The translations under genes and the position numbers were made by a program. A DNA stretch of 64,000 bases from Nitrosopumilaceae archaeon (GTDB taxonomy: Archaea > Thermoproteota > Nitrososphaeria > Nitrososphaerales > Nitrosopumilaceae). The stretch lies in the NCBI GenBank assembly GCA_965207375.1, contig CBDBMG010000002.1, positions 256,001 to 320,000 on the forward strand. The letters are read 5' to 3'. The notes beneath the pieces are model-generated. The model made no database searches, was not told where the DNA came from, and worked only from the letters and a program-made list of their open reading frames with translations. Position 1 is the stretch's first letter. Every line of letters begins with the position of its first letter. Below, piece by piece: positions 1-62,399 of the stretch.

Positions 1-1317
1 CAAAAACATGCCCTAAATACTGCACAGTTGACATTCCAATGTGACATTTCTCACCCCTCAAGGTTAGCCCAGCATCCAACAAACGTTTAAACACTATATC
101 AAGGTGTTCCCTATGAGTGTCTATATTCTTAGAATGGACTAAGATATCATCTAAGTAAATTGTCACAAATGAGAGACCCTGAAGAGTTTTATCCATCAGG
201 CGTTGGAATGAACTGGGGGCACCTGCCAATCCAAATGGCATTCTGTAAAACTCATAAAGCCCCATGCCAGGCCCTGGACAGAAAGCAGTCTTTTCCCTGT
301 CTGTAGGATTGACAGGTAGCTGCCAGTACCCACTATGAAGATCAAGTGTTGAGAAAACTGTTGATCCCGCAAGCTGGCCCTGCACTTCATCAGGGGGAGG
401 TAAGGGGTATGAGTCTTTGGTCGAACGTTTATTTAGCTCCCTGTAGTCTATACATATTCGTAACTGCCCTGACTTTTTGGGTACGAACACTGCCGGTGCC
501 ATCCATGGACTTTTACTGTGTCTAATAATGCCTTCATCTAACATTGTTTGAACTTGTTGACATACTTCAGCACGGTAATGAGCTGGGATGCGTCTAGGTG
601 GCACCTTCACTGGGTTACCTACTGTGGGAATGTAATGCAATGCATCCTCTGTATATCCAGGCTTGGTACAGAATAACCCATGATACTTCTCCATGACACA
701 GTAAAGGCCGGGATTAGTGCACGCAGGTAGCTCTGACTTCAGTGGGGCCTTGTAATTTGGGACAGCGCAATCATCAACAATGTCAACCTCAGGTTCTTGA
801 TTAACAGAAATGTTGCATGCTTGGAAAAACTTTTTCTGTGTTGCTTCATATATTGGGACAACTTGAGCTATGGCCATACTATTCTCTGTCAAAGAAGTTA
901 CCTTAGGGTGTCTTTTACTCACTGCCACTGGATTTTGTGTAAAGTCTAACATGAGCCCATTTCCTTGCAAAAAGTCAATTCCCAAAATCACAGGGGCCAC
1001 AAGGGTCTTAACTACAACAAATTCATGTAAAACATGTAACTCACCCAACTGTACTGAAGCCTTTACATGTTGTAGAATAGGTAGCTGATCTCCAGAAGCT
1101 GTCACCGATTGAATTGGTCTCCCTGCTGTCACTTGAACTATATTTTGAGCACCTCTCAGCACATCACACTGTACCAACGAGACTGACGACCCAGAATCCA
1201 GCATTAATTCTACTCCCACTCCTCCCAATGATCCTTTGATGATTGTTGCTGTGGATTTAACAACTGCTACTGTTATAATTGCATTGTCATTTTGCAGGTT
1301 CAGGTTCCTTGCAGGGC
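1..1317 (-). pseudogene. pol: Gypsy pol remnant: aspartic protease + reverse transcriptase
   Basis: Manual minus-strand translation gives VELMLDSGSSVSLV (~1175-1215), WMAPAVFVPKKSGQLRICIDYRELNKRSTKDSYPLP (~400-505) and FVTIYLDDILVHS (~132-170). Frame is broken. Confidence 0.9.
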
Positions 1318-2116
1318 TTACTGGTAGGGACACCTGTTGCCCTGTACAGGTGCCCCGTTGTCATTTCCCTGATGCCAACAGTCTTTTGAAAGATGTTCTA
1401 GTCTGCCACAATTGAAACATTTACGATTACGGCAGTCACGTTGCAGATGTCCCACTTGATTACAATGAAAACAACGTGGACGACCCCTGGATAGTCGCAC
1501 ACCTCTGGACTGGTTTGTTGACAAGACAGCTACTTGTTCGGAAAGTACAGCTACTTGTTCTCTCAAAAGTTTTACTTCATCTGACTTCTGTGTTAAGGCA
1601 TCTGGTTTCGTAAGAGCACCTACCGAGTCCGAGTCAATGGTCATTAACAATCTCGCGCGTGTTATCGCCGCATCCAACGTAGTTACTTCTCCTGATGCTC
1701 GTAACTGCTTTGCGATCAACTCGGGAATTCCCGCCAAAAACTGGTGGTACAAAAGTGGTTCCTTCGCTGCCTGCTCCAAATCCGGTAGCAAATGATTAAG
1801 CGAGGTCGTGTACGTACAACGATATAGCCTCGCCTGGTCGAAGCTTCCTGCAGTGAAAATCATCCAACGAAACAAAGTTCATAGGCATTATGGCTTTTTC
1901 CATCGCTTTCTTAGCTTCGACATAGTCTTCTTGCTGTGCATTTGTAAGTTCTAACCAAACCGCAAGGGCTTCTCCTTCAAGTAGCGTGGGTAGCTTCTTT
2001 GCTTTCGTTCCCGCCTCCCATCCATTAGCTTGCATGCAAATTTCAAACTGCTGGAACCATTCTTTCACATCTCCACTTGAAAACAGCTTGGGTAGACTAA
2101 TATGACGCTCAACCAT
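1318..2116 (-). pseudogene. gag: Gypsy gag, frameshifted near 1800
   Basis: ORFs 2116..1796 (W...FE....ANGW...LPTLLEGEAL) and 1875..1318 with two CX2CX4HX4C knuckles (CFHCNQVGHLQRDC, CFNCGRLEHLSKDC). Confidence 0.88.
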
Positions 2117-12079: not shown

Positions 12080-13684
12080 ATGAGTGTAGCATGATTTGAT
12101 AGGTCTTTCGTGACAATTTTAATTTTGTAAACCAGTCATGATTTTTCCTGGATTGGTTTGGACAGCAAATTCAAAATACTACAATGCCCTTCGTTTATTA
12201 TTTTTATCATGTATTATAATTTGTGACCAACCTGTGGCAGCTACACCAATGTTATTTTTTACTAATAGTGTTGAGACTACAGCCAAGTTGAATACTGGCT
12301 ATTAACAGAGATCTATGAGAGTTCCTATTCGGAATCTGTAACCTGTAGTAGTTCCCGTTCCAATGTTAGTTTGTGTTTAGACATAGGATAAGAGAGTTAT
12401 AAAGATACCTTGTTTTGCTTTGAAAACATTTGGTGTATAACTTTTATTTACTTACGAACTGTTGCAAAAGTTATGTTTTCAAGATATCGACAAGTAGTTT
12501 TACATCATGTCCCTCCAGCTACACCCTTGTACTGTGGTGAATACTTAAAATTTAAATATAATAAAACATTGAACCCTCAGGCTCTAAAAATGTACAAACG
12601 TATAGCATGCAAACAATTGTACAACCTTCCCTAGTATACAATTACCTACGTAATTTCTTTGCCTCTTATCATTTTTCTTTTAACATCGCATGAAGGGGCA
12701 CTTCCATTCACTAACATGTGGCTTGTAGCTCCGAACTGTAAAAGTTTCGTACTTAAAATACCGTAATTACGATAACTTCCTTAATACACATACTAACTTC
12801 CTTAATACGCATGTGTATTATTTCGTAAAATGTGTGTAGTTTTGTGGTCATTTCATTTGTAACTATGCAGCTTCTACGCTTTGTATTAACACTTCTTTGT
12901 ACTGTCAAATGATAGTGGCTCCACTGTGACTATGATTACAAAATAGTGACTTTTAATTGCAGTCTACCATATGTGTTAATGTAATTTGCATTACGTCTAT
13001 ACAGTACACTGATAAGTTTGAAAAAGGACATGGAATGAGTAATTGAATTGTCTAAATGGTGGTCATCTTCTGAGAGGGGCGGAGGTGAGGATTGTATGTT
13101 CAGTGTTGAATATAAATAATAAAAAATAATAAAAAATTAGGATATGTGGAAGAAAGTCTTTGCATAATGAGATTGGTAAAAAATATAAACCATCATATAA
13201 AAACTAAAAAATGGCAAATACAACTAGTTGAGTCAGAGGTTAGCAGGAGTGCAGTGGCTCTTGCCAACTGTGAAGTAAAAGGGTCGCTACAGTGATGAAT
13301 ATGAGGTCAAATTGAGATGGTATACTTGATAAGTTGTATATATAGTATATTCTTCATTAGGCGCTTGTTTGTCTATAGCTACACGGTATCAGTATCTTCG
13401 AGTTGCTTCTTATGCTGAGATTGTGTGCTACTGTTTACAGTATCTGGAGTCTCCACTGGCAACTCTTCCCATTCCCGCTCGGCATAAACTGCACTACAAT
13501 TTACTGTTAAATTCAGTTACAGTTTTATTGCTAGGCCTTTCTGGCCTGGTAATACTTTGTGGGTTTACTTCTTCAGATTCTCCACTGCTAGCTCCTCTCA
13601 GTCCATCTACACTATCATATTTTGGCTCGTATTCTGGCTAACTTTTTGATGATGAATATTCCTGTAGATGTTTAAACTTTTCAC

Positions 13685-16047
13685 TAGAGATGTACCGATC
13701 TAACACTTATGAGCCGATTCGATACCAATACGATTTAAGTAGCTAGTATTGCTATACCGATATTGCACCGATCCGATACCGATTCTGAATTTCTGATTTG
13801 AATACATGTCAATACAAAGAATTTATATTCAAATTACACATTCCACTGTACCTACTGTAATTATCTTTGCCACCCAGTTCGGTTGCTTCTGAATCTTTAT
13901 TCAGTGAAACAGGAGTGATTGACAGCAACCGCAGAAGGCGATTACTTGCTGACAAGATTGAGATGTTAACTTTCATCAAACGTAATGTGCTTTCTGTGAC
14001 GAGTGATAATTCCAAATGAACTTCCTGTAAGAGACCACAAACATACCTCCTGGCCACAGTTGCTAAAGCAGAATACTGTTGTTTGTGATTTTTCCAATAT
14101 TCTAAGGGTTCTATAAATTTATCATGTTTAGGGCCCTCCATTAGGGGTTCATCAAGATAATCAGAAATCATTTTAGAAATCTTTTCCACAGAAGTGTGAG
14201 GTATTACCGTAGGGGTTTTTCCTAGTTTCTTCATAGCATTTTTGCAGCTATCCCAAACACTAAAGCCCTTCTTTTTATTGCTACTAATACTGTTTTGATG
14301 TTCTGTGCTGCTATGTTGAGTGCTATCATCAATATCCATATGTTGAAACTCTGGTTGCTGCTCATTGTGTTCATCACTGGATTGTGTCACAATTTGAGTG
14401 GATTCTTGTGATCCTTGGTGAATAGCAGACTCACAAATAGTTAAGAGTGTCTGTGTAGCTGACTCAGTTATTGCTTTCTCAAAGAATGTAGCCTTAAATC
14501 GTGGATCAAGGAGGGTGGCTATTACAAAATAATCATCGTTGTAAACATATTCGAATCGTGACTTCAATGATTCAAGCATCTCTTCCTTGGTTGTTTTAAT
14601 CCCTGAATCACTCTCTTTTGGTGTGCTTAGTTCTATTTTCAAAGTTTCTAAAAAAGGTATTACTTGTGATATGCTGGCCTCCTTAGCACTTAATTCTTTA
14701 GTGACACGCTGAATAGGCTCTAATAGTTTCACAATTTTTTCTGCTTGCTGCCAGTCATTGGCACTTAGTCGTTCAGGCAGACCATAATCAGCATCATAAA
14801 GGCTTATCGCACGACGTTGCTCTACCAGACGTTCGAGCATATAGTAAGTTGAATCCCAACGAGTGGGCTCATCTTGCATAAGCTTGTGTTCAGCCAAACT
14901 CAATTGATGCTGAATGGAATGCAGGTGGCCTATTGCAAGACTTGAGTGTTTAAAATGACCCACTATCTTTCTGCACCGTGCCAGCATGTCTATAATACTC
15001 CTTTGTACCAAAATAGAATCTTTCACCACCAACTGCAGTGTGTGTATTGTACAGCCAACAGCTGCCAATCCACATTTCCTAATGCCTGCTACCATGTTTG
15101 CTGCATTATCACGAACTATAGTGTGTACTCTTGACTTGTCAATACTCCATCCATCTAGCAGCTTTGAAATCATTTCTGATATGGCATCTGCAGTATGGGA
15201 CCCTGGAAAATGACAAACCTGGAGCACCCGTTCTTCTCTGCAAAACTCTGAATTGATGTAATGTGCAGTCCAACTGATGAATGACTCACCACCATCACGG
15301 GACCAAATGTCAGTTGTGAAGCTAATAGAGAAGTTATCTTCAGAATGGAGATCTTCAAATAGCCTTTGCCTCAACTTGGTATACATATCAGGTATAATTC
15401 TTTCTGAGAAATACTTCCTTGATGGTACAACATATCGTGGACATACATGCGCCAATAGTCGAATGAACCCTGTGTCTACCACAATTGAAAACGGCTGTGA
15501 ATCAAGAGCAATCATCTCGGCGATTCGCTTAGTAACTTTAATATGCTCAGGATGATCGTAATTCCATGGTTCCTTTTGTTCTTTGAGCTCAACGAGTGTC
15601 AATTGGCGTGATTCACTTAGCCTTCTTCGTTTTATCACTTTGCCCTCTTCTGCCTTCTTTTCTGCTTCTTCGCGCTCTTTAACAAGAAGCTCATCAAACA
15701 ATTCATGGTGAAAGCGACGTAAATGATTTCTCAAATTAGTCGTGTTAAAATTTTTAACACTCAAACCTCCCCGACTAACACGTTCTTTACAATCATTGCA
15801 TATCGCAGTCTTCTCGTCTTCTTGATCAACAATAAAATAGTTCCATATCAGGCTTCTTTTCTTCAACGCAGCCATAGCACGGCTAATTTGTTGATGGTAA
15901 TTAGTTTTAAAATTTTTATCGACTATCGGTTTAATTAAAAATAGTTATCGGATCGGTGTGAGTGTCGTATCGGTAACTCCGATACAACTTGAAATACCTG
16001 AATCGGCTACCGATTCCGATTCGAATCGGTAAATTGTTACATCTCTA
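13685..16047 (-). mobile_element. Complete hAT DNA transposon (2363 bp)
   Basis: TIR TAGAGATGTA...TACATCTCTA; perfect 8-bp TSD cttttcac at 13677-13684 and 16048-16055; subterminal cgat/atcg repeats. Confidence 0.97.
13809..15875 (-). CDS. hAT (Ac/ZBED4-like) transposase, C-terminus scrambled by an internal inversion
   Basis: BED finger (IWNYF..AICNDC..TTNLRNHLRRFH), FTTDIWS, VRDNAANM, CTIH, TRWDSTYYMLERL, ATLLDPRFK, PLEYWK..LATVARRY. The expected continuation (PSSVASE) lies on the + strand at 13861-14019. Confidence 0.92.
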   Translation of the reverse strand: MAALKKRSLIWNYFIVDQEDEKTAICNDCKERVSRGGLSVKNFNTTNLRNHLRRFHHELFDELLVKEREEAEKKAEEGKVIKRRRLSESRQLTLVELKEQKEPWNYDHPEHIKVTKRIAEMIALDSQPFSIVVDTGFIRLLAHVCPRYVVPSRKYFSERIIPDMYTKLRQRLFEDLHSEDNFSISFTTDIWSRDGGESFISWTAHYINSEFCREERVLQVCHFPGSHTADAISEMISKLLDGWSIDKSRVHTIVRDNAANMVAGIRKCGLAAVGCTIHTLQLVVKDSILVQRSIIDMLARCRKIVGHFKHSSLAIGHLHSIQHQLSLAEHKLMQDEPTRWDSTYYMLERLVEQRRAISLYDADYGLPERLSANDWQQAEKIVKLLEPIQRVTKELSAKEASISQVIPFLETLKIELSTPKESDSGIKTTKEEMLESLKSRFEYVYNDDYFVIATLLDPRFKATFFEKAITESATQTLLTICESAIHQGSQESTQIVTQSSDEHNEQQPEFQHMDIDDSTQHSSTEHQNSISSNKKKGFSVWDSCKNAMKKLGKTPTVIPHTSVEKISKMISDYLDEPLMEGPKHDKFIEPLEYWKNHKQQYSALATVARRYVCGLLQEVHLELSLVTESTLRLMKVNISILSASNRLLRLLSITPVSLNKDSEATELGGKDNYSRYSGMCNLNINSLY

Positions 16048-17249
16048 CTTTTCACTCTCTTTTGTTGAACAGTAGCTGTATTTTCTCTATAACTGTCTAC
16101 TACTGCATAAACCAGCAGGCGGATATGACATGATCGTGACCATTTGTTGGTATGCACACATATATAGCTAGCAAACTGCTAGATTACCAGTAACCTAATT
16201 GGAAAGAAGAAACTTGTAAATCATACAACCAAGTCTATGCTGTATAGCATGGTGATATTTGCAGGATATTTGCAGGGGTGGGGGATGTTTGAAGAGGTAG
16301 AGGGTGTTGGCAAGGGTGCAAGCCTTTGGAAGCCACTGTAATATTGTACTTGAAAAGTGAAAGAAGTGTGGATGGAGGCTCCAGGGAAGGACCTACCTGT
16401 TGGATGCAGCCTCTTCAGAATCAGAATTTGCTTTTTTTTCAAAATTTTGTATAAAATTATGGTATAAATTAGTAACTTGTACTTAAAGGCAGTGCGATGT
16501 TGCTGAAGCCGTTTAACTTTTTGTGATTTCACAACCTGTGAATTAACAAAAATCACATAAGAATATGTAGTTATCCCAAAATAGCAATGGAGCAAGTTAG
16601 TGTTCCGCGCGTTGGTCGTCCACTGAAGTATCCAGGAGGCTGGGGCAGTGCTAACAAGAGCATTTATTTATCTGAAAGTGTTTATCAGGGGTGGCTAGTG
16701 GTCCTAGGCACGCCTGGTGTTGTTGATGGCTATTTAATAAGACTATAACGATACGGTTCTTGTAATTATAATGAAATGTACGTACTTGTTTTGGCATGGT
16801 TTTCTCCTACTCCCGCAACGACAATTACTGGTACAGGTTGTTAAGATACATTCACGGTAATACATACTTGATAGAGACTAATAGCGTTCATTACATATAA
16901 CCCACACAATAACCCAACCAGCTTTAAAAACTATGTCTATGCAACAAGTTGTCGCATGAACTAGAGAAATGTATGCTTTAATAGAGTTATATAGCACTTT
17001 TTATGATGATAAGTATATTATTAATCTGCTCTGCAGAACTTCTGGCTAAAACCATGCCAACGCTAAATCAAAACGATTACTAGCTTCAAAAGCTATGTTG
17101 GGGTTACCTATTGTTGAATACACTAAAGCTAAGCTGGTTTGCCAACATTATTACACATGCACAGGATATTGGCCCCCTGTTCACCCTAGGTGGCCTGATC
17201 AGGTTGGTGTTTTAATTGGAACCTACTCAGCCACATCCTATACTTGGCT

Positions 17250-31599: not shown

Positions 31600-33749
31600 G
31601 TGGTGGCACTTCCAGGACTCATCCAGAAGTAAAGATGTTGTGAAGGTTTTCACTGCACTCTTTGAGAATTTTATGATACTCACATCGTTCTGACCTTGGA
31701 ACTGACCTTGGACTTGATAATAATATTTGTGTGTGGTCTTCAGAGAAAATTTTCTGTTGCTGTATCGTAGAAAGAAAGTTGATGATTTAAGTTCAGGCTT
31801 GGTACATAGATCTACTAGAGAAACCTTCTCACCACGAGCAGTGCATTTGATTTCCAGTAGCCCACAAGGATTAGCAGGGTCACTGCAGTCTAAAACCAAG
31901 CCGTCTGGTGAAGCTGCCAACCAATTGTCCTATTGTAAAGTCAGTGCAATATAAACATCCCATGCATAATATTTCTTACCAAGCAGTCTATATGCAGTCC
32001 AGTCTTGCTCACAAAAACTGTTCTGTTGTATTCATCACGTTACTTGGCAATGTATGCTTCACAAGCAACAGGTTCGTTGTCATGACCATACTGCATTGCA
32101 GGTGTTACACACCATTTACCATACAGAAGCCTAGTAACCAGAGGTGTGACAGATGTTGATTTCCTTCTCTTAGCAATATCACCAAAAGAGGAAGCAGTTA
32201 GACGTTTACGACGGAGCATCATCCATTCACCTGATTCATCATCAGCTTGTTCAGCAGTCATCTCACTGATTTCCTCAATCTGTTTGGTAGTCTTCCGTAT
32301 TCTCTCAAGGTGTTCCAGACACAACTGGAATAATTCAATTTGAGGAATATCTGTTTCTGCTGGTAAACTGCCATAAGAGGAATCTGGTGAGTTGACTACT
32401 GAAGAGTCATAACGTGCTTCAAGCCTCTGTTTTTGTATTTCAGACAAACTACCCTTGCTGAGTCACGATCATGCTTCCACTTCCTTCTGATAGTGAACTG
32501 ATTAGATAGTTCTAAGTTGTCACTGAGACCCATGGATCGAAGTACAGTGGTGGTCCAACCAGACCCATGTTGTATTCGCAATGCACCAGCCATGCACCTG
32601 TGTTGGAAGGATCCTGATTGGATCTGATTAAAGTACTTCCCTCCGTCCATCTTGCACCTGTGCAAAAGTTTAACATTAAGTTTATTTGCTAAATGTATGT
32701 AAGTTATCTGATGGACATAAAATTCTCTGTTATATTTGTTGTCTTACGTATTCTGAATTAGCTACCGAGCTTTTGAAACCAACCGGTCTACAGCAGACTC
32801 GACGTCATGAAGGAAAGAAGGAGGCAGTTTAGATAGAAGTGATGAACCTAAACACAGATTTAGTATGCATAATTTTATTAATTTTGCATTACTTGTGTCT
32901 GCTGTGTGCTTGCAAAACGATGATCTACACTGTTGATGGTCACCAAAGCAATGTCGTATACCATTTCGCAAGTCATGATGAAGTGCAGCAACATCTCCAG
33001 TAGTACTGAGCATCTTAGTTACGTAGCGAGCACCATGAGTAATTAACTCTCTTCATCCTGATTGCATAAAGTCCATACCGTCCTTGATATTTTGGATGAT
33101 TCTTACATAGTACTTCAAGGCGGTTCTGGTAACATTTAATGGCATGGTTGACACACTCAACTTTTTGCACAAAGCGACCATACGAAAGTACTCCAGTTAC
33201 CACTGCATGGTATACAGAGCTGTCACCATCCCCGATGAACCACAGATATCTAACTCTATGGATCTGTTCTGATACTGGAAGCCTTCACAAATGATGTCTG
33301 CTTCCATGGCACATGAACTACCCCTCCAGTTCCGATGACACTAATGGGATGGAGGAGGTGAGTTTTTCTGTTCACTTATGGCACAAACGGAGCAATACTT
33401 GTTTCTCACTCCTATGAACAATAACTTCTTGGTGGCAGCTCCAAATATTACTCCAACATCAGATTTGGCGTTATATGAGTGTTTGTGAGATCTTTTACTC
33501 CAACTACTGTCCACCACAACAGTAATTGCAGGCACTCCTTCATGATATTGACTGTTTGCTATTGCTAAGTCTCTCTCCTCCTTGCCAGCAATTAGTAAGT
33601 TCTCACTCACAAGTTCTCAAACACAGCTCCTAGGTGACGTTCTAACTGAATAAAAGTAGCTTTGGTGACTGATGGGATTTGCATGCAAGCAAATAGATCT
33701 TCTAAATGTTCAGCTCCTTCATCAGTAGCAACCTACTGATGAAGCATAT
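31600..33749 (-). pseudogene. Mutator-like/Kolobok-type DDE transposase fused to YqaJ (lambda-exonuclease-like PD-(D/E)XK) nuclease; broken
   Basis: VVVDSSWSKRSHKHSYNA, GVRNKYCSVC, NWRGSS.AMEADII.EGF, FIGDGDSS, KVECVNH; then RLTASSFG, AMQYG..NE, AASPDGLV..LLEIKC, YYYQVQGQ. Confidence 0.88.
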
Positions 33750-33983
33750 CAGCATGTCTATAATACTCCTTTGTACCAAAATAGAATCTTTCACCACCAA
33801 CTGCAGTGTGTGTATTGTACAGCCAACAGCTGCCAATCCACATTTCCTAATGCCTGCTACCATGTTTGCTGCATTATCACGAACTATAGTGTGTACTCTT
33901 GACTTGTCAATACTCCATCCATCTAGCAGCTTTGAAATCATTTCTGATATGGCATCTGCAGTATGGGACCCTGGAAAATGACA
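33750..33983. repeat. 234-bp copy of the hAT transposase interior (14982-15215)
   Basis: Identical by eye, same orientation. Confidence 0.95.
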
Positions 33984-33995
33984 TTATACATGATA

Positions 33996-35621
33996 TTTAT
34001 ACAATTATATGTGTACATTCATGTGTATTGTATATCAGAGTTCATAATTATTACAGAGGAGTGTCCTACTCTGTAATAGCCTGTAGCTACAAACTTTTGC
34101 CGTATAGCTAGCCATTTGTCAAAACCATTTTGAGTTGGAAAATTTTAACAATTAGAGTGCAAAATGGGTATTTGCTGAAAACTTTTCACAGTTGCGTGCT
34201 TGTAGACACTTGCTTTACCACTGTTAATAATCTATGATAAGGCCAATCCACAAGGTCATGTGTAAGAAGATGTGTTGGCACTTCTCGCACGGAAGACAGC
34301 CAGGTCCTTACTGATAACATTAGCAATTCCATTTACTGCAATGTATATCACACAACTAATGCCTTTCGAGTAGCTAGGTGTTACTTTTGGAGAGGGAGAA
34401 TGCTTCATGCTCACTCCTTACCAGCTTTCAACACTGCCGTTACATCCTCATTAGCTAATTCAATAGCTCTATGATCAACATATTCACTCAATCAACCATT
34501 TGAATGAGGAAGAGGAGGTAGTTTTCAATAGCCTTCTTTTTCTTTGTATTTTGACCAGCCTTCTTTTTCTTTGTATTTTGAACAGCCTTCTTTTTCTTTG
34601 TATTTTGAACAGCCTTAGTCACTGCAGTCCTGCTGGGAGTCTAGGCATAAGTTAAAACATTTTCTCCAACTGATACATATTTTAAATAACAAATACAAAA
34701 GGATCTTTGGAATGCCATGTGGTATACTGGTACGAAATATTAGGGTTTACTTGTAAATAATCTACAGAAAAACATTTATAATTCTTGTTGCAACGTACAT
34801 ATAATCTTATATTATAACTAGCTAGTTACTTTGTTTATACAATTATATGTGCACATTCATGTGTATTGTATATCAGAGTTCATAATTATTACAGAGGAGT
34901 GTCCTACTCTGTAATAGCCTGTAGCTACAAACTTTTGCCGTATGGCTAGCCATTTGTCAAAACCATTTTAAGTTGGAAAATTTTAACAATTAGAGTGCAA
35001 AATGGGTATTTGCTGAAAACTTTTCACAGTTGCGTGCTTGTAGACACTTGCTTTACCACTGTTAATAATCTATGATAAGGCCAATCCACAAGGTTATGTG
35101 TAAGAACATGTGTTGGCACTTCTCGCACGGAAGACAGCCAGGTCCTTACTGATAACATTAGCAATTCCATTTACTGCAATGTATATCACACAACTAATGC
35201 CTTTCGAGTAGCTAGGTGTTACTTTTGGAGAGGGAGAATGCTTCATGCTCACTCCTTACCAGCTTTCAACACTGCCGTTACATCCTCATTAGCTAATTCA
35301 ATAGCTCTATGATCAACATATTCACTCAATCAACCATTTGAATGAGGAAGAGGAGGTAGTTTTCAATAGCCTTCTTTTTCTTTGTATTTTGACCAGCCTT
35401 CTTTTTCTTTGTATTTTGAACAGCCTTCTTTTTCTTTGTATTTTGAACAGCCTTAGTCACTGCAGTCCTGCTGGGAGTCTAGGCATAAGTTAAAACATTT
35501 TCTCCAACTGATACATATTTTAAATAACAAATACAAAAGGATCTTTGGAATGCCATGTGGTATACTGGTACGAAATATTAGGGTTTACTTGTAAATAATC
35601 TACAGAAAAACATTTATAATT
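33996..35621. repeat. Recent tandem duplication: 33996-34783 and 34834-35621 (period 838 bp), each with a 27-bp x3 repeat
   Basis: Only a handful of substitutions between the copies. Confidence 0.97.
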
Positions 35622-39469: not shown

Positions 39470-40731
39470 GAAACAATACAAAGCACACACAATTCCACGC
39501 TGGCAGTGACCACATAAAGCAAACAATTCCGTGTTTGCGGAGGCCACATAAAGCACACAATTCCGCGCTTGCGGAGCACATTACGATTCCAAGCTCGTGG
39601 AGACAGTACAAAGCACGCTATTCAGCGCTTGCGGAGACCACACAAAACACACAATTCTGCACTTTCGGAGCACATTACAATTCCACGCTTGTGGTGACAA
39701 TACAAAGCACACTATTCCGCGCTTGCGGAGACCAAATAAAACACACAATTCTGTGCTTGCGGAGCCCATTACAATTCCACGCTCGTGGAGACAGTACAAA
39801 GCATCCTACTCTGTGCTTGCGGAGACCGCATAAAACACACAATTCTACACTTTCGGAGCACATTACAATTCCACGCTTGTGGTGACAATACAAAGCACAC
39901 TATTCCGCGCTTGCGGAGACCAAATAAAACACACAATTCTGCACTTGCGGAGCCCATTACAATTCCACGCTTGTGGAGACAGTACACTCTGTGCTTGCGG
40001 AGACCGCATAAAACACAGCACATTACAATTCCACGCTTGTGGTGACAATACAAAGCACACTATTCCGCGCTTGCGGAGACCAAATAAAACACACAATTCT
40101 GCGCTTGCGGAGCCCATTACAATTCCACGCTCGTGGAGACAGTACAAAGCATCCTACTCTGTGCTTGCGGAGACCGCATAAAACACACAATTCTGCACTT
40201 TCGGAGCACATTACAATTCCACGCTTGTGGTGACAATACAAAGCACACTATTCCGCGCTTGCGGAGACCAAATAAAACATACAATTCTGCGCTTGCAGAG
40301 CCCATTACAATTCCACGCTCGTGGAGACAGTACAAAGCATCCTACTCTGCGCTTGCAGAAACCACATAAAATGCACAATTCCGTGCTTGCAGAGCACATC
40401 ACAATTCCACGCTCGTGGAGACAGTACAAAGCATACAATTCCGCGCTTGCGGAGCACATTACAATTCCACGCTCGTGGAGACAGTACAAAGCACACAATT
40501 CCGCGCTTGCGGAGCACATTACAATTCCACGCTCGTGGAGACATTACAAAGCACACTATTCCATGCTTGCGGAGACCACATAAAACACACAATTCCGTGC
40601 TTGCGGAGCACATTACAATTCCACGCTTGTGGAGATAGTACAAAGCACACAATTCCGCGCTTGCGGAGCACATTACAATTCCACGCTCGTGGAGACAGTA
40701 CAAAGCACACAATTCCGCGCTTGCGGAGCAC
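39470..40731. repeat. Satellite array of 26-34-bp hairpin monomers with 60-, 94- and 188-bp higher-order periods
   Basis: Core acaattccgcgcttgcggag / acaattccacgctcgtggag; ORF-track ends recur every 94 nt. Confidence 0.95.
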
Positions 40732-41411
40732 CTTTTTACACCAGAAGAAAACAAAGCCCTTTCAACATTCGAGTCAATAAAACTGACGTTTTTATGTACA
40801 TCCACAATGACCACATCGATAAACATTGTGTTACCAAGAAGGCAATTTTTAAAGATAACATCTGAACAAAATATACTGTGATGAAACACAGAATTACTGA
40901 GATTACAATTAATAAATGATACTGCTTCTTTAAACTCAATGCCAACAAATGATAATCTGGCCATGTTTTTGTTTTCAAACACAATTTCTTCTATTGAACA
41001 ATACGAATAATATGAATTATTAATTCTCTTATTAAAATGATACATAAGATTGTCCTGAGTTATGACATCAATTTCACGTAGCAAAACTTTGACAAGACCA
41101 TCAAGTTGGTAAAATTTTGCTTCACAAAGGAGGTCCGATACTACATCAGCAGACAACCTGGAAAATGATTCAACCACTTCTTCTCCATTCCTCAAATAAT
41201 TAAGAATGCATCTAAAGTGAGTCCCATCTCGGTCAATGAAATAGCTTCCATCCTTACACTGCATTGCTTTCAAATCATGCCCACCACTAAACATCACTCC
41301 AAAATATGACTCAGGAAAGCTAGTTAGCGTAGATATAGATGTCAAGTAATGTATTCCTCCTACATTTAAGTCAATCATTGGCTCATCATTTCTAGCGTTA
41401 CCTGCATGTAC
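40305..41411 (-). CDS. BTB/POZ (KCTD-type T1) + pentapeptide-repeat exon (KCTD9/FIP2-like architecture); last ~140 codons are satellite
   Basis: IDLNVGG..Y.TS.STL...PESYF..MFSG..DGSYFIDRDG.HFR.ILNYLR, then F...F..C.L...F pentapeptides; splice acceptor ttacag near 41412. Confidence 0.85.
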   Translation of the reverse strand, partial: VHAGNARNDEPMIDLNVGGIHYLTSISTLTSFPESYFGVMFSGGHDLKAMQCKDGSYFIDRDGTHFRCILNYLRNGEEVVESFSRLSADVVSDLLCEAKFYQLDGLVKVLLREIDVITQDNLMYHFNKRINNSYYSYCSIEEIVFENKNMARLSFVGIEFKEAVSFINCNLSNSVFHHSIFCSDVIFKNCLLGNTMFIDVVIVDVHKNVSFIDSNVERALFSSGVKRCSASAELCALYCLHERGIVMCSASAELCALYYLHKRGIVMCSASTELCVLCGLRKHGIVCFVMSPRAWNCNVLRKRGIVCFVLSPRAWNCNVLRKRGIVCFVLSPRAWNCDVLCKHGIVHFMWFLQAQSRMLCTVSTSVEL

Positions 41412-44400
41412 CTGTAAGTAAAATGTATGTATTCGATGTGATTGAAGTGACTTTTATTGTGTCGGTGATCAATGCCTGATACTACAATAATGAAGAAACC
41501 TATAATGACTGATTGACTAGGCCATTTTTACTTGTTTATCAAAAACAAAGCTCTGGGTATAGTTATGTTACAAAACTATTTTTGGTTGTGGAACTTATGT
41601 GTGACATATAACAAGTGCACCATGCTAAATAATATAATATAAAATGCTAATAATCATGGCTAGTTATTCTAATCAACATTTGAAGCTTTGCATATATAGA
41701 AGCACATAGAAGCCGTAATTGTGGGTTTAAGTTTCTGAAATTTGACCCATACAAAATGATTACAATGCAAGAAATGAAATCTAGCTACTCACATGCACTA
41801 AGTATTTGAGTGGCCTGTTAGCTACAGATGAATATTCATACAGCTATAGATCTATACACCAGAGATCTCCATCACACAACATTTTTCATTTTTCAAAGGC
41901 ACAACAGGCCATGTTGGTCATCACATTAATGGTCTTTTTATTCCTAGAGTTTTTATATACAAATTATGGAAAACAAAGTTTCTTCTATAGAGGGGCTGTC
42001 CTGGTGAAATAGTTTGCCCTGGGCTGTAACTGAAGTTACCACCTTATCATCATTTAGAAATTTATGTTTTAGTTTGTTTTTTGGTATGTGTGTATTTGTT
42101 GTGTTGCATTGTTGTATATTATAGCTACGTACGTTGTATGTACAGAGCTCCACTGAAAATCAGTAGCCATTTATTTATTGAGTGAATGAACTCCCTGTTT
42201 AAATTATTACAATTACAAATACAATCAAACAAGACATGCAGTAGCTCAGTAGCTACCACACTAGCTAGCTAGCTAACTAATTATTCATAAATTTACATGG
42301 CCTATGCATGCAAGTAAAGATTTTGCATGGGATTAATAGTGGTAGTAGCTATAGCTACCATCCACTTAGCAAAGGCTAGCTATATATGGTAATGTAACAC
42401 AACAATGTGTGAAAATGTATTAAAAGTGAAGCCAATTGACTGCCTAGCTTACTATAACAGGATAGGCATTATAAGTGGAGAGGCATGTAAGCTAGCTAGC
42501 TTTTGCTTGATCATGATCATATGCATGAAATATACTTCATGATCATTGAGCATCCCATATATACTACGTACATAGTGGTAAAATAATATATTATTATACA
42601 GTAAGTTTACCTGGTCAGCTTAAGCTACATACTCATGATCAAAGGTGTATAGTATTAAGCTTGGTATGTACACATGTTCCTCCCTGTTATACTTTAGGCC
42701 AAGTGCCTCTTTATTTTGCCTGCTATGATGTATATATTATACTGTATGAGGTAGTCAGTAATATGCATGGTGCATGGTTTTTTAATACATTTGGATCTAG
42801 ATCTGTAGGCCTGTCAACTAACGTGCACATATCAGACAAGCTGTCACAAGCATAGTCAGCTGCTACAGAAATATACAGTGCATGGCATGCATGTAGTTGT
42901 CATGTACAGGATTATTCATAGGCATGCATATTGCATGATATGCCAGCACACTCTATTGTGAATTGTCCATAGGAATTAGAATATGTCTCGCTAAGTACAT
43001 TACTTTTGCCCCCACACTTTTAAATAGCTTCCAGTTATCTAAGCTTTGCTTGTTCTTGTAGTGAAGGGATAAAGCTAGGACTTATAATATGGATGAAATG
43101 GATGCTTCCCAGCACTACAATCAATCAACAATACATATATTTAGCGACATAAATATAGTGCAGCTCAGTTGAATACTCACTGTAAAAATTATAACACACA
43201 TAAATATCCACACAAATACTAAAGACTATGTAAAATGATTTGTATTTTAAAATAGTTGTGAGAAGTTCTACAACATCTGCTCATGACTTGTACACGCGTT
43301 CCTATGGCAAATAAATTAATTGCAATATTCACAACACACAGTGATATATCCATACCGTCACTATAATTATACATATGTCCTCTTCTTTGATCAGTCATAC
43401 CTTTGGCAAATCCGATATGTTTGGTAGCTACTCTAGTATACACTGCTATGGTAAAAATATAATACACACAGTGATAATAATTACATCCTTACTGCTATTA
43501 TCGCCGGTGACCATTTCCTATCACCTCCTGATTAATTGCGCATATGTTCCTGTGGCAAATAATAATTGACAATGACATATTCAACAAAAATTATTCTCTT
43601 GCAATTATTCGCACATGAATACAAACAGATCACGGTGGTTATAATTATGTAAAATAAGCATATAGTGTACCTGCTGATCCTGTGGTACCAGTAGGTCCGT
43701 GCAGCTGTAATAAACTTCAACTGTATGCATCTAGTAAATGTACAAAAATAACATCTTCTTTACATGCCTTTATTTGAATGTGCACACAAGCATGTATGTA
43801 TGCCTGCATCATGTAACAAAATTATAACCTTGCCACAAAATACAAACAATCCTCAAGGCCATATACTGTGTAACCATGGTGATGTATGCGGCGGTTACTG
43901 TGTCACCATGGTGATTTATGTGTTTGCAGAGTAACTATGTCACCTTGGCGATGTGTGTGTTTGCTCAGTAACAGGCTATATATGTACTGTGTAACCATGG
44001 TGTATAGATGGAGTTAAGGCAATACGTATCTGTCTAGCTGGATCCCATCAGCAGAACTATATATGTGATGAACATGTATAGCAACTAGGGATTACTTTAG
44101 CTTGGTTGGCATGACAATAGTGTTATCATGACAACAATATTAACATGTTGCATCCTAAAATGCATGCTCCTATGGGGTATTGTATGCATGGCAATTACTC
44201 GTAAAATATAACCCCAGTCAGTCAATATTTCCCCATCTGCACTCCAGTGGAACCTGTGTAATAAGGACAACTTGGGACCAACAAAGGGTGTTCTGATCTT
44301 TCAAGTTAGCTAATGTACTTCAACCACTAGTTTTAATTGGTACCTCAACTAATGTGTCGGTATACTGCGGTATCGGTCTTGTGTACATTTACCATATAGT

Positions 44401-55266: not shown

Positions 55267-58200
55267 ATGATCTCAAAACAACGTAAGCGTCGTTACTATC
55301 GCAAAAAAATCTACCAGATGAAACAAACTGAAGAATCTCAAGACAGTAACATGATCAATGATGATCAAAATACTAACAAAGTTGATACTCAAGATTGTAA
55401 CATGAGCAGTGATGACCAAGATAATGACAAAGTCAATGATGCTCAAGATAATAATGAAAAACGTCGTTAGAACAACAGGAAAGATGAAACTAATTTAAAA
55501 CGACGCCAATCTTATCTTGTAAACCCTGCTGGTATTCGCCATAGGGTCAAAGAATCATACCATAAAAATCCTACTCCAAAAAGACAAAGAATGAAACAAG
55601 CATACACCAGCAATCCATCTCCTATTCGTCACAGAGTTAGGGAAGCATACAAGAAGAATCCGTCTCCTGTACGTAGGAGGGTAAAGCATGCCTATAGCCA
55701 ACATGCAAAACCTGTTAAGAAACGAGTTAGGGACTCTTATCAGTCTAACCCTTCACCAATACGAAAACGTGCTCGTCTTTCATATGCTGCAAATCCTTCA
55801 CCCATCAAGAAGAGAGTGTTAAGAAGGTATCGTGATCATCCCTCTCCATTTAAGGAGCGTTCAAAACAAGTTTACCATTCCAACGTAACTGCTAGTAGAT
55901 CTCTACGACGTAAGCGATATTCTGAAGATCCTTTCCCTGCTTTGAAAAGGTCTCAACTATATTACAGACAACATCAAAATGAAGTGCTAAAGAGATCTAT
56001 GCATCGCAGACATGCAACTTCAGCTGCACTTGCTATTTGGAATAAATATGACTGAATTTTCCATAGAAAATTTGGTCAATATGGTACATACAAAGAATAT
56101 GTTGAAAAGGTCCTTAGAAAGCTTGGATTGCGAAACAAAGCTACCAATAAGCTGAAAGCTCAACTGTTAGTACGGTCATGTCTGCAACAGCTCAGCCTTT
56201 ACAAGCATAGATTTATGACATCTTTTGACAGGTTACAGAACATGGTTAAAGCTTCAGTCAGTAAAGCTACTGAAGTGGCTACTACAGATCTGGAGGTGTT
56301 AGACATATTCTGTGGTGGGAGTCTGCATACAAGCAACACAGAGTTGTATAATTGTGGACCATGTTACAACCCTGAAGCTTTTAGAGAAGACGGAATATTG
56401 GATTTGGAGAAATTTCCAAGTACCGAAATTAACTATGTTGGAGACAAATGCGTTGCAACTTGGGAATGCTGTTTAGATCCACCTCTTTGTAAGCTTGATA
56501 CTGCAGTAATATTAACCAAGTTACGCTCAATATATTCAAGCATTATCGATTGTTCTGCCAATGCCACTCGCAAATATATGAAACATATGGATGACTGTTC
56601 AAGTAGCAAATTAAGGGACAAATCTTTACAGGGTCATCCACTCGAGTGTTATTTATCTTCACCTCCATGTGCCTCAGAGTTGCTGTACCTATGCATTTTA
56701 GCACCACATTTCCCTGCTATCCGCCGTATTGTTATGACTATATATGAAGTGCGGAGGTATGACCGTAGAATAACTGAAATAGAATATGCTTTGCGGTATG
56801 GTCACTTGGATAAAATATTAGAAATTGTAAAGGAAGCCTGGACTATTCGAATGAGACTATATGATGTTTCAGCTGAGGTTTTAAATGAAAAGAGCATCTA
56901 TGAAACTTACAATAAAGCTTTCTCAAAGTTTAATAAAAGGTGTGAAGATGTAGCCAAATATCCTTGCATTTCATGTGATAAGCTATGCTTTCTGAGAGAA
57001 TGTTCACGTGTAGGTCATTTAAAGGTAGTTCCATCCAACAGACACTGGAAGGATCTTTTGGAATTCAATGAAACTAGGCCTGATTTCGACGACACTCTTC
57101 TGAATGATCATATATGTGACTATTGCATTGAATATTTTAGATCAGATAGACTGCCACCGCGATGTATTTTAAATGGATTGGATTTTGGTGGTACTGTCCC
57201 AGAAGAAATTAAACTTTTAAATACTTACGAGAGGGTACTTATACAGAGAGCAAAGTGTTTTCAAACTGTTACCAGGATGGGTACGGTTGCCAAGAGACAT
57301 TTACCATCTACTCACAGGATTCGGAAGATCCGTGGTACTACATTCCATCTGCCATTGCCTTTGCAAGAAACATTGAAGAGATTGCCAGAACCACATCAAC
57401 CTCTGGCAGATACTAGTGAATTATATATTCTACTGCGTAGCATCCCAACTAAGGCAAATGTAATATGGCAAGATTTGGTTGATGTTCACAAGGTATACCG
57501 TGCTTTGCAAAAGCTGAAAGAAATTAACCATCTCTATTTTGCAATTGTAATGCCGGGACAACCTCATGAACTTCAGTTGGAAATGCAAATTGAAGAATTT
57601 TCTGCTACATCTGAGGATGCTATGATCCAACAAATTGCTGAACATGAAGAGGCTGCTTTGTATGAGCAATACACCATTAATGCACTTCATGCACCCAGAC
57701 AAAATGAGAAAGCCACTGCTCTTTATCAATTGCTTAAGGTTAATGAAGCTCCTCTTGACAGCCGCACCAAGTATTTGGATATGCTTTGTTTTCCAGATTT
57801 GTATCCACATGGCATAGGAGGCCAGACAAGTCACAGAGAAGTACCACTAAACCCGGCTGAGTATGTCAAATGTATTCTGATGTCCCGTGATTCACGATTT
57901 CGATTGAATCAACAGTTCATTTTTTATTTGTTACACCAAGCCACCTTGCGACAGATAGCTAGCGGGATATATCATAAGCTTAAAGTAACCCGTCCTAAAG
58001 AAAAGCTCACTGCTGCACGGTGTCTGCAGTTACTGTCCAGGGATGAATTGGAGGGAAACCTTACAACAATATTTTCACGACTACGTAACACTGAACAGTA
58101 TTGGATCTGCCCTCGCAATGATTTAAATTGCATGATGTTTCATTACAGACCTGCTACTTGGTTCATCACTCTGAGCCCGGGTGAATGGCTTTGGGAAGAC

Positions 58201-59700
58201 CTTGGTGCCTACTTGCGTGAGCTAAATCCTGAAATGAGTGATTCGACTATCAGTGAATTAGTGGTTGCATATCCAGTTTCCACATCTAGGTTTATCGACA
58301 ACAAATTTAAAGCTGTACTGGAGTTTCTTTTGTTCCACAAAGTTCCTGTTGAGAAACGTCCCTTGGGTAATGTTATTCACTACTGTGTTAGACGTGAATA
58401 CCAGGGAAGGGGACTTCAACATTTTCATCTACAATTGTGGATAGAAGGTGCTCCACTCATAGGTGAAAGAACAACAGACGAGGACGAGATATGTACATTC
58501 ATTGCAAAATATGCTACTTGTCAAATCCCTGACCCAACATTGTGTCCTACACTCTATGAACGTGTCATGAGGTTTCAGCAACACAAGTGTAATGATTATT
58601 GTTTACGAAGTAAAAAAATAAAAACTGGCTTCAAGAAAGCATGTCGATTTGGCTTTCCAAGACCTCAGCGTGAAAAAATGCATCTCCGCAGTGTTGTGGA
58701 AGCTGTGGCAGGTAGGAAGTGTTTAAAGGCTAATTCCCGTCTGTATGATCTTCCTCGCAAAAGTAATGCAATAAGAATAAATGATTACAACCCTGCCATT
58801 TTGCTTGCCTGGGAAGGTAACATGGACATCCAGTACATTGGAGAGAATTCAGCTATTCTGAACTGGTATTGCACCAAGTACACAACCAAAGCAGAAAAAA
58901 GTCACTGTATACAGGTGTTTGATGACATTACCTCCACCAAATCACTAGCCAGTAGATTATGGAATGTTGCACTTAGGAGCCTTTCTCACAGAGAATGTGG
59001 AGCACTTGAAGCTGCTGACACACTCTTAGGAATCTCTCTGTTCAGCACTGATAAAAATACTACCATTCGATGGGTTGATGTTAACATGGTGCGCAGTAGA
59101 AAATTGAAAGATAGAGCAACAATTGAAGCTCTAGATGATGAATCCTCAGACATTTTCTTTCCTTCGTGGGTTGACAGCTATTATCCTAACAGGGCTGAAG
59201 AACTTGTAGGCATGCATCTGTATGATTTCTTGGCTTGGCAAGTCTGGGAGCGAAAAGAGCCAAGTAAAAACACTATGTACTATCCATTCATGGGTGGTTT
59301 CTTGAAAAAGAGGGACCGCCCATATCTGCTTAATCACTACAAATACAGTGTCAGTGAAGAACCAGAGAAATACTACTACTCATTATTGCTTCTTTTCAAA
59401 CCATGGAGGGACTGTGAAAGTCTATTGGGTGGTTGTGAAACGTATGCTGAAGCATTTCATTCCTTCACAGCTGAATCTACAGATGCTGTAAATTACCACA
59501 ATCACTTACAGCAATACCAAGGCAAAGACAAGACCATTAGGATGGAAATAGACAAGTGTCGTACTCAGATGGAGATTGAAGAACAAAATTCCAACAAAGA
59601 GGCACATGAAAATGATCCATTACTGCATGGGGTTTCAGAGGCTAAGGAAGCTATGGCAGATTTTGAAGCTGCTTTGATAGATCATGACGACACATGTTAA
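55267..59700 (+). pseudogene. Helitron/Helentron Rep (HUH endonuclease) with N-terminal 15-aa Y..NPSP repeats; two in-frame stops (55468, 56053)
   Basis: ORFs 55186, 55591 and 56128 share one frame. Motifs: CFPDLYPHG, PATWFITLS (1), EYQGRGLQHFH (HUH), CRFGFP, YNPAILLAWEGNMDIQ, YCTKYTTK (catalytic Tyr pair). Confidence 0.93.
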
Positions 59701-61290
59701 TGCAATGATAGAAAATTTAAATGAAGATCAGTTGAGGGTATTTGACACAGTTAGAAACAGTGTGCACACCCAGTGCCTGACATCACAAGCTGACAATGCA
59801 GAGCCATTGCGAATGTTCATCAGTGGATGTGGTGGTACTGGCAAGAGTTATCTAATTAAGACAATCAAAGCATGGGTTTGCTCAGCAACTGACAAACATG
59901 TTGCAGTCACTACTCCAACAGGAATTGCTGCATTCAACATAAACGGCCTAACCATTCATCGGTTATTGCAGTTACCTGTGGAGCATGGCAAAACTCCACA
60001 GTATCGTCCACTATCAGATAACAGCCTCAAAATTGTTAGGCAACGCCTGCATAATTTGATATTGCTCATAATAGATGAGATCTCAATGGTTAGTCATGTT
60101 ACTTTGCTATATATACATCTCCGATTGACTGAGATATTTCAAACAGAAGAAATGGAAAATGGTTGGTTCGGTTGCAAAAATATACTGGTGTTTGGTGATT
60201 TGTTACAGTTACCACCTGTATTTGAAAGTCCAGTGTACATTCCACTGACATCTACCATTGTTAACAAACACACTAGTTCTGTAGGAGGTGCTGATATCTG
60301 GAGCCGATTGTTCAGCTATGATGAACTTACTATCAACATGAAACAGAAGGAACACGGTGAATTTATTGAACTACTTGGTAGGGTTCGGTTAGGTGCACTT
60401 TCAGCGAGTGATATCAAAATATTGTCAAATTGTAAGATACCGCTTAGGAGTGACACAGTGAACGGACGCATGAAGGAAATCGTGTCCAAGCTTGCAGAGC
60501 TACCAGAGGACACAGTATGTCTATTGCCAACTAGACATATGTGTGAACAGATCAATGCAGAGGTGCTGAAGGGTCTTACTGGTAAACAGTATAGTATTGT
60601 TGCAGAAGACAGTGTAGACTGTTCAGCAACCCTTTTGCAGAAAGTTAAACAAAAACTAGCAAAATATTCAGAAGACTCCACTCACACTGCCGGTCTAGAG
60701 AATATGATTACTATAAAAGTAGGCTGTAAAGTTATGCTACGACGCAACATAGATGTCACTTTGGGATTGGTTAATGGAGCAATTGGAACGATTCGCAATG
60801 TTCAACGGTGCATTGATCATGCAAACAAGATGGATACTGTAACCATCATGTTCAGTAACAATCAAGAGCATCACTTGAAAAGGGTCACTACTAAGTTTGA
60901 GGTGTTTGACAAGGTATATGTCATTCGCTCTCAGTTTCCTATAACCACTGCATATGCCATAACAATACACAAGAGCCAAGGGCTCATACTCAACCATGTT
61001 TTAACAGACATCGGCAACACTATCTTCACCTGTGGTCAAGCTTATGTAGCTCTTTCAAGAGTTAAAAGTATTGAAGGCCTGCACCTAATCAACTTTGATC
61101 CTAGATCTATCAAGGCATTGGATTCAGCAATTTTAGAGTATAATCAGCTTAGAAAAGATTTCAGGTCTAACATGCAACCATTTGTTCTCCCTAAACGACG
61201 TCCCAAAGCAATTGATGATAGACAGTGGTGCACAATCAGGTCTGCATCTGCAGTACAACAACCTGTCAACCAACCAGCTCAAGATGTTAC
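59684..61290 (+). CDS. Helitron Pif1-family SF1 helicase domain
   Basis: LNEDQ, GCGGTGKS, PTGIAA, IIDEISMV, FGDLLQLPPV, VMLRRN..GLVNG, QFP...AYAITIHKSQG, GQAYVALSRV. Confidence 0.95.
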
Positions 61291-61294
61291 CTTC

Positions 61295-62085
61295 AAGGGC
61301 AAGGGATTTGTCAACTCTGATGGCGTCTCTAGTTACGCTAATTCAGTTATGCAATGCCTATTGTTGTCTCCTGCTGTATGTCAGGCTATGCAGCAGAGCA
61401 CCAGTACAGCTATCAAGGACATGTGTGATGCATATACATCAACGGCTGAGTGTAATTTGGATTGTCTACAGCTCCGGCAAGAACTAGGAGCGCCTTTTGA
61501 TAGACCACATACTCAAAGTCCTGTTGCATTTTTACAAGCACTAGTACACCATTCATCACACTTAAGCTCCGCACTTTAGCATACTGTGAGATTGCACATT
61601 CAGTGTACCCACTGTAACATTGCTAGTTTTACTGAAAACCAACAGCACATCATTCCACTATCCATTCCGACATCAGTGAAAAGCTTGAAATTGACCAAAC
61701 TAATGCAAATGTACATGGATTGGACTCAGTCAGCAGATAAGTTCTGTGATGTTTGCGAGCATCCAGTGAAAGTGCGTACAGAAATTGTAAATGCCAAACA
61801 TGTACTGATATTGCAGATGGATGTGTGGAGTAGCATTGATGATAATGCTATCAAGCGAAAGACAAACATCATATCCTTACCAGATAGTTCAATTACAATA
61901 GGTAGTAGTACATACAAACTCATGTCAGCTGTTAGCCTTTTGCCCAGCACTAGACCAAGCTGTCATTACTTCACCATACTGTCAACTAAAGGAAGAAAGT
62001 GGCTACATTTTCAGGATCTGGCTGCCTCTACTGCCCCTTGGCCTCGTGGAGGAAAAGATGTGCTAATACTATTTTATCACCTTAA
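61295..62085 (+). pseudogene. USP (peptidase C19)-like domain 1, degenerate; in frame with helicase, TAG at 61577
   Basis: GFVNSDGVSSYANSVMQCL (Ser at the Cys position), CTHC/CDVC zinc-ribbon pairs, Y.L.S...CHY...W..F.D...LILFY. Confidence 0.78.
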
Positions 62086-62399
62086 AAATACTGTTGCATC
62101 CATGAAAACAACAGCAGCTAAGGACAGTAGCAGAAGAGAAGCTGGGCATTGCACTACAACATCACCACAAACCATTTTTGCTAAATCGCACAGAATGAAG
62201 ACAACCACATCCGTATCAACCGAAGCTGCCACAACTACACCAACAACTATGACATACACAACAGCAAATTTCACAACTACAACTGGACCTACTACAGTAT
62301 CTCCAACAGCAACCCCAACAGTGGGTACAGCAACAACTACAACCAACACTGCAGCTGAGTGTGGCACAACATCAGGAGGCACCAGTTTGACTTTTAACA

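Follow-up and report, generated by a model that had tools for sequence, protein, structure and literature searches.

The window analyzed here is a stretch of 64,000 nucleotides of DNA (G000:C3:256001-320000) that contains, at 13685-16047, a transposon of the hAT superfamily in which the last part of the transposase gene lies on the strand opposite to the rest of the gene. An initial annotation had proposed that the tail of this transposase was inverted over 182 bp, at 13861-14042, and these coordinates were confirmed both by the split of the PF05699 domain at this position and by the colinearity of a related protein, P0002, across it. The features of the element are as follows (coordinates in the window, strand, description).

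13677-13684: left 8-bp target site duplication (TSD), CTTTTCAC, identical to 16048-16055
13685-16047, minus (strand of the transposase gene): whole hAT element of 2363 bp, recognized by its terminal inverted repeats (TIRs), TSD and Pfam domains
13685-13694, plus: TIR at the 3' end of the gene, TAGAGATGTA, identical at 10/10 nt to the reverse complement of 16038-16047
13695-13860, minus: 3' untranslated region (UTR) and subterminal region in unchanged orientation, with repeated CCGAT/ATCGG motifs
13812-14042, minus: 77-codon read-through tail without homology, running antisense through the flipped piece and on into the 3' UTR, with its stop at 13809-13811
13861-14042, plus: inverted 182-bp segment, with the 52 terminal codons at 13861-14016, the stop at 14017-14019 and, at 14020-14042, 23 nt of 3' UTR
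13891-13893, plus: GAA codon of the third catalytic Glu (...VASES...), equivalent to Hermes E572 by the P0002/Hermes alignment
14043-14165, minus: first half of the C-terminal hAT domain, PF05699 profile positions 3-44 of 84
14043-15875, minus: first 611 transposase codons without stop or frameshift, from the Met at 15875 to ...LATVARRY (Tyr codon 14043-14045)
15108-15110, minus: second catalytic Asp, D256, equivalent to Hermes D248 by alignment; invariant column in alignment A1
15309-15311, minus: first catalytic Asp, D189, equivalent to Hermes D180 by alignment; invariant column in alignment A1
15708-15854, minus: BED zinc finger, DNA binding (PF02892, E 4.2e-10), residues 31-79 of the stop-to-stop frame and 8-56 from the Met
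16038-16047, minus: TIR at the 5' end of the gene, pairing with 13685-13694; family loose ends lie behind 16047 in 4 contigs of the public run X1
16048-16055: right 8-bp TSD, CTTTTCAC, matching the left copy at 8/8

As the initial annotation had stated, the TIRs, the TSD and the remainder of the open reading frame (ORF) are intact, with 8 of 8 TSD positions and 10 of 10 TIR positions matching and 611 codons uninterrupted. The element is bounded by one TSD pair and one TIR pair, and the TSD agrees with nTnnnnAn, the target preference of hAT elements. Both subterminal regions contain repeated CCGAT/ATCGG motifs, the one at 13695-13860 carrying the direct repeats D5 and D10 and the inverted repeats I1 and I17, paired with the opposite subterminal region, and the longest inverted repeat within the element is a 26-nt subterminal pair. 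Comparison of the internal repeats revealed no duplicated or lost sequence within the element. It is the sole full copy in the 4.3-Mb assembly, which otherwise contains one 234-bp fragment of it and hAT relatives at 25-31% identity on contigs C3 and C4. The TIR sequence TAGAGATGTA, present at both ends, conforms to the hAT TIR consensus [T/C]A[A/G]NG given in the available text of PMC6027215. The 8-bp TSD and the short TIRs starting with TAGAG are shared with the hAT superfamily (Hermes, Ac, hobo and the animal 'ZBED4-like' elements).

On the minus strand, the frame 13809-15944 is open throughout. It encodes the BED finger, a match to the hAT RNase-H-like profile PF14372 that stays under the 27-bit cut-off (E 2.9e-4, 21.4 bits), and the first half of the C-terminal domain, after which it continues antisense to the flipped piece, giving a read-through product of 688 amino acids, 611 genuine residues and then 77 unrelated ones. 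The claim that the antisense strand stays open to 13809 was borne out, though this open frame is unremarkable, given that 63 of 551 comparable 60-codon windows (~11%) are also open in the same antisense phase. The end of the transposase was found on the plus strand, where the frame 13861-14019 encodes LSLPPSSVASESLFSETGVIDSNRRRRLLADKIEMLTFIKRNVLSVTSDNSK followed by a stop, and where the peptide matches PF05699 (Dimer_Tnp_hAT, 84 positions) at positions 42-83 (E 1.6e-6). With positions 3-44 of the profile on the minus strand and 42-83 on the plus strand, the two strands each hold one part of a single domain, which is cut at one point.

A protein search for relatives scored 8000 candidates, of which 610 matched at E <= 0.001, and the best 120 of the 610 were examined. 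The closest among the matches listed were unnamed ENA/JGI assembly proteins: P0001 (82% identity), P0002 (71%, full cover) and P0006 (96% identity over 52% of the query), the last of which is clearly a frameshifted copy. The named matches (32-44% identity) were animal proteins called 'zinc finger BED domain-containing protein 4-like', including one from the sponge Amphimedon, and the relatives carry the precomputed Pfam domains PF27041, PF27039 and PF05699. Residues 1-594 of P0002 (640 amino acids) align to the minus-strand part of the gene (439/615 identical), and from residue 595 on the protein aligns to the plus-strand peptide (38/44 identical). Because P0002 is colinear at 594/595, nothing was gained or lost at the coding junction. 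Judged from these sequences, the matching domain halves together with the colinearity with P0002 exclude chance.

The catalytic residues were located by aligning P0002 with the full-length Hermes transposase (8edg_A, E 8.5e-22), the sole solved relative by sequence. In this alignment the D of ..sDiw.. corresponds to D180 and the D of ..vrDnaan.. to D248, and the Glu of ..vaSEs.. faces that of Hermes ..aaSEr.., which is E572 (counted from chain residue 539). The available text of PMC6027215 gives D180, D248, R318, W319 and E572 as the essential Hermes residues. Equivalents of all of them are encoded in the element, which, like other members of the superfamily, has a BED finger, an RNase-H-like domain and a C-terminal domain, but the D, D, E and R/W residues are not in one polypeptide: D189, D256 and the R/W pair (R339/W340) are encoded by the minus-strand ORF and the Glu codon lies on the plus strand. 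Hence, unlike in the superfamily, the E572-equivalent codon and the rest of the last 52 codons are on the opposite strand and absent from the encoded protein, and the copy counts as 'truncated' under the criterion in the available text of PMC6027215. The proposals that the flipped piece holds the third DDE Glu, and that the encoded protein would be without the catalytic triad and keep its DNA-binding part, agree with this assignment, since the minus strand is predicted to encode the BED finger as well as both Asp residues and the R/W pair.

One breakpoint of the inversion separates Tyr611 from the Leu that follows it, and the other lies 23 nt past the stop codon. The coding junction 13861|14043 is exact, according to both the normal-orientation contigs described below and the colinearity of P0002, and it cannot slide because a shift by 1 base puts a stop at the Tyr conserved in the relatives. 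The inversion had been called clean, and this exactness holds for the coding junction only, whereas the non-coding junction 13860|14042 is seen only in a contig that is offset by at most 5 nt. Likewise, the GTA microhomology that had been described at the flanks exists as a GTA/TAC inverted pair (13857-13859 / 14044-14046), but it lies one base off each edge and is compatible with chance, and the exact inverted homology at both edges is 0 nt. The lone inverted exact match of at least 6 nt near the edges is a 7-mer (13859-13865 / 14005-14011) that does not pair both boundaries; no inverted repeat of at least 6 nt pairs the two edges, and none does so among the 25 longest of the 58 inverted pairs. 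A tiny GT...AG 'intron' at the junction was rejected on inspection by eye, as it would span 18 nt and is simply the reverse complement of a piece of the 3' UTR.

In replacing a segment by its reverse complement in what appears as a single balanced event, with an exact coding edge, the rearrangement resembles the microinversions described between genomes. According to the available text of PMC8755829, the definite human-chimpanzee microinversions measure 17-33 nt, and every one of them has flanking inverted repeats (3-75 nt), the inner edges of which are almost always -5 to +4 nt from the inversion edges. The inversion in the window, with its 182 nt and only a 3-nt GTA/TAC pair one base from the edges, is not a clean fit to the pattern as published in that text.

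The orientation of the tail in other hAT copies was used as a control. Scanning metagenome contigs with alignment A1 yielded 53 related loci, all of them at most 52% identical. The 52-residue tail was detected in 39 of these, on the same strand as the body in 39/39 and flipped in 0/39, and in 22 loci it begins at the base right after the residue-611 match; in the remaining 14 loci no tail was detectable at E <= 1e-3. Searches with a single-protein query gave 27 pattern matches in metagenome contigs and 13 in genome contigs, with 0 confirmed relatives in both. At one of the 53 loci, a distant hAT relative on a metagenome contig (L040:3001-4623) is divided between the strands, with residues 5-366 on one and 395-465 on the other, and is thus a second internally rearranged hAT copy.

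Contigs of four public runs (X1, X2, X4 and X16) were placed on 13000-16700. Run X4 comes from a different study than X1 and X2 and was assembled from its own reads with a different assembler. One of its contigs (record 24, 2123 nt) covers 13000-14174 with 1 differing letter in 1175 nt and runs from the left flank through the TIR and across both derived junctions, and two more X4 contigs, 14147-15026 and 15008-16700, match the remainder of the element and its right flank without a single difference. In addition, 8 runs from three studies contain 85-93% of the sampled words of 13600-14300. Word shares are small in runs X9-X20, of which X16 was the one placed on the element; they are 0.16-0.18 in X9-X11, which may be transcriptomes.

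The normal-orientation joint, 13861 to 14043, was present in 3 X1 contigs (summed depth 41) and 1 X2 contig (depth 188.6), with no ambiguous letters. It was also found in X16, an RNA library, where a 505-nt contig (record 9) from a relative about 90% alike reads 13862-14041 on the minus strand and then 14043-14192 on the plus strand. These joints in X1, X2 and X16 show that the material also contains normal copies of the family, in line with the initial annotation. Contigs of X1 and X2 start exactly at 14043 (records 4 and 17), as expected at a graph branch between the two forms. In X2, depth was 218 in the unique flank, 460 at 14043-14461 and 188.6 at the normal joint, and in X1 the corresponding depths were 59 in the unique flank, 95.7 at 14043-14284 and 41 at the normal joint. 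These rough depths suggest that the normal form adds to the depth of the locus rather than sharing it, and that the two forms belong to different copies and are not two states of one locus. Other insertion sites of the family show up as loose ends, which lie immediately before 13685 in X1 or 13683 in X2, and behind 16047. Among the 36 X16 contigs on the element, none is at least 99% alike, 1 is 95-99%, 9 are 90-95% and 26 are less than 90% alike, and the flanks are uncovered; as these contigs come from a relative, X16 is uninformative on transcription of the inverted copy.

Two further observations concern other pieces of the family. Some copies in X1 and X2 have a 219-nt internal deletion, located in the variable acidic linker of the transposase, in which 10 other letters take the place of the lost ones (joint 14266 to 14486, one contig per run). 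In the window itself, the 234-bp fragment at 33750-33983 is 100% identical to 14982-15215 (residues 221-298, D256 included) and lies in direct orientation, 20 kb downstream of the element, between unrelated flanks. This piece is real, because its flanks recur as loose ends in X1 and X2, and it may be filler DNA or a capture. A perfect palindrome seen by eye at 33717-33744 (12-bp arms, 4-nt spacer) ends 5 nt before the fragment, a Mutator-like transposase remnant lies close beside it at 33341-33616 on the minus strand (PF20700, E 1e-19), and directly downstream lies a 788-bp near-tandem duplication (33996-34783 / 34834-35621, 99.4% identical).

We consider it highly probable that a private, balanced 182-bp microinversion disabled one young hAT copy, and that this was a mutation and not a regulated switch. 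The simple decay event in one copy, which the initial annotation had kept as its lesser reading, is thus the one favored here. A recently inserted autonomous hAT element, 'ZBED4-like' by the names of its relatives and equipped with a BED finger, an RNase-H-like core and a C-terminal domain, would have been hit by a single inversion that moved the last 52 codons, including that of the catalytic Glu, to the opposite strand, and the copy could then encode only the 688-amino acid product. This product would retain the BED finger, D189, D256 and the R/W pair, and would be without the Glu, half of the C-terminal domain and all that aligns with Hermes 562-601. Because the Glu and half of the C-terminal domain are lost, it should be catalytically dead. 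As the TIRs, the subterminal repeats and the TSD are intact, the copy would be in effect non-autonomous, and normal copies could presumably still mobilize it in trans. The inversion most likely arose either when two breaks close together were wrongly repaired, or when replication or repair switched templates at a place of little or no homology.

Several points weigh against this reading. The depth of the locus in X4 is just ~3 and X4 is perhaps not an independent individual; among the X1 and X2 contigs listed, none bridges the junctions of the window itself, and it is the branch, along with word shares of 0.91-0.93, that points to the inverted form in these runs. Moreover, the lone X1 contig listed for the non-coding side (depth 6) places the normal joint at 13855 to 14044 instead of the expected 13860 to 14042, and a few bases may have changed there or a small insertion or deletion may have occurred. 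Contig depths are rough too, which makes the depth case against a two-state locus weak. An artefact of the window's assembly, with the true orientation being normal, could be imagined because a repeated element with normal copies in the same data could mislead an assembler, and the initial annotation had named such an artefact as what would undo its claim. This is unlikely given the X4 contig, which was built from that run's own reads and has both derived junctions in one piece with the TIR and the left flank, and given the word content of the eight runs and the branch exactly at 14043 in X1 and X2; we attach very little probability to it. Equally slight is the chance that nested insertion or recombination between copies put together two partial copies of opposite orientation at the locus, with a result that is balanced only in appearance. 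The offset of a few bases at the non-coding junction would fit such an origin, as would the detached 234-bp ORF piece, which shows that fragments of the element get moved. The flipped piece, however, consists of exactly the missing codons and stop, beginning from the very next codon, nothing is duplicated or lost within the element, the normal-form contig rejoins at most 5 nt from the expected place, and there is a single TSD pair and a single TIR pair.

The two remaining alternatives would give the inversion a function. Switches of the Hin, Gin and Fim type are site-specific invertible DNA segments, and the initial annotation had thought a reversible switch conceivable. A programmed inversion turning the transposase at the locus from active to inactive and back would account for a short segment found in either orientation, with the gene intact in one of them, and it would agree with the exact, in-frame coding junction and with the presence of both junction orientations in X1 and X2. 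Unlike at those switches, the segment has no flanking inverted repeats (0 nt of inverted homology at the edges, with the 7-mer missing the second edge), no recombinase domain was found among the 12 window ORFs scanned, and the setting is eukaryotic. The two orientations appear to belong to different copies, with depth sums that fit extra normal copies at other sites, as indicated by the loose ends at the element termini, and no flipped tail occurs among the 39 tail-bearing relatives. The switch is therefore disfavored, and we hold it to be exceedingly improbable. It is improbable, though less so, that the inverted copy is functional as a trans-dominant inhibitor (DNA-binding and catalytically dead) and/or as a source of a 182-nt antisense RNA that damps the family. 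Truncated transposases that inhibit are known, such as the KP repressor of the P element and deletion derivatives of Ac. This copy still has its BED finger, its two Asp residues and an undisturbed 611-codon frame, no stop interrupts the read-through, and normal copies, the potential targets, are present in the same runs. Loss of half of the C-terminal hAT domain may nevertheless abolish association with intact transposase, about one in nine windows would have an open antisense frame by chance, and 35 of the 36 X16 RNA contigs are less than 95% alike, the one crossing the junction being in normal orientation. A literature search on dominant-negative truncated hAT transposases gave no directly relevant paper among the 8 listed. 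Mu killer (PMC3440606) and Ac/Ds composite insertions (bioRxiv 10.1101/2020.01.07.897926) are precedents for silencing by rearranged copies; in the available text of these sources they are inverted duplications transcribed into long hairpin RNA that triggers silencing. The copy in the window resembles them in being a rearranged transposase gene that is partly antisense while active copies exist elsewhere, but it is inverted and not duplicated, and the other fragment of the element lies 20 kb off in direct orientation. The idea that the antisense stretch yields double-stranded RNA accordingly does not stand for a hairpin in cis, which is impossible because the 182 nt are not duplicated within the element. 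The fuller version, in which the flipped copy is fixed in the host population and expressed and tames its own family through antisense pairing in trans that seeds small RNAs, together with a Glu-less BED protein sitting on transposon ends, seems to us decidedly improbable.

The host of this DNA is not the organism under which the assembly is filed. The assembly consists of 4 contigs (4.30 Mb) and is filed as a prokaryote genome of high quality (completeness 99.95, contamination 0.06). Long ORFs (at least 150 codons) cover 0.78 of C1 versus 0.11 of C2, 0.19 of C3 and 0.15 of C4. C1 (2.16 Mb) is the only contig with bacterial coding density and has the single bacterial 16S gene, whereas C2-C4 (2.14 Mb), with 11-19% long-ORF cover, contain animal-type transposons, and no tRNA genes were found in the window. 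About half of the assembly is eukaryotic host DNA, and the window belongs to that half. Because runs labelled sponge metagenome contain a tenth of the sampled words and one of them, X16, has contigs of a relative of the element, the host is probably a sponge. Eukaryotic transposons and genes elsewhere in the window include a Helitron-like unit at 56056-63220 on the plus strand, whose three open frames abut or overlap: one with Helitron_like_N and DUF6570 (1214 amino acids), a PIF1 helicase (632 amino acids) and a ubiquitin C-terminal hydrolase (UCH) domain (546 amino acids). The PIF1 and UCH frames are parted by a single stop, and the UCH domain may be a captured host domain. A partial long terminal repeat retrotransposon with zinc-knuckle gag, aspartyl protease and reverse transcriptase runs off the start of the window (2-1878, minus strand), and a KCTD-like open frame of 382 amino acids with BTB/POZ (BTB_2) and pentapeptide repeats (40305-41453, minus strand) is probably a host gene or exon.

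Marker-based checks miss the host DNA in this assembly, and its animal transposon genes will enter 'bacterial' protein and genome databases. The private microinversion itself, as we read it, adds little to knowledge of hAT elements or microinversions, and offers a tidy case of a young DNA transposon disabled by one small structural change and still movable in trans. It would matter only if the copy were expressed and inhibitory, because it is rare in animals to catch what naturally triggers the silencing of a transposon; a flipped copy that tames its own family would then give an early-branching animal a minimal, non-duplicative counterpart of Mu killer.

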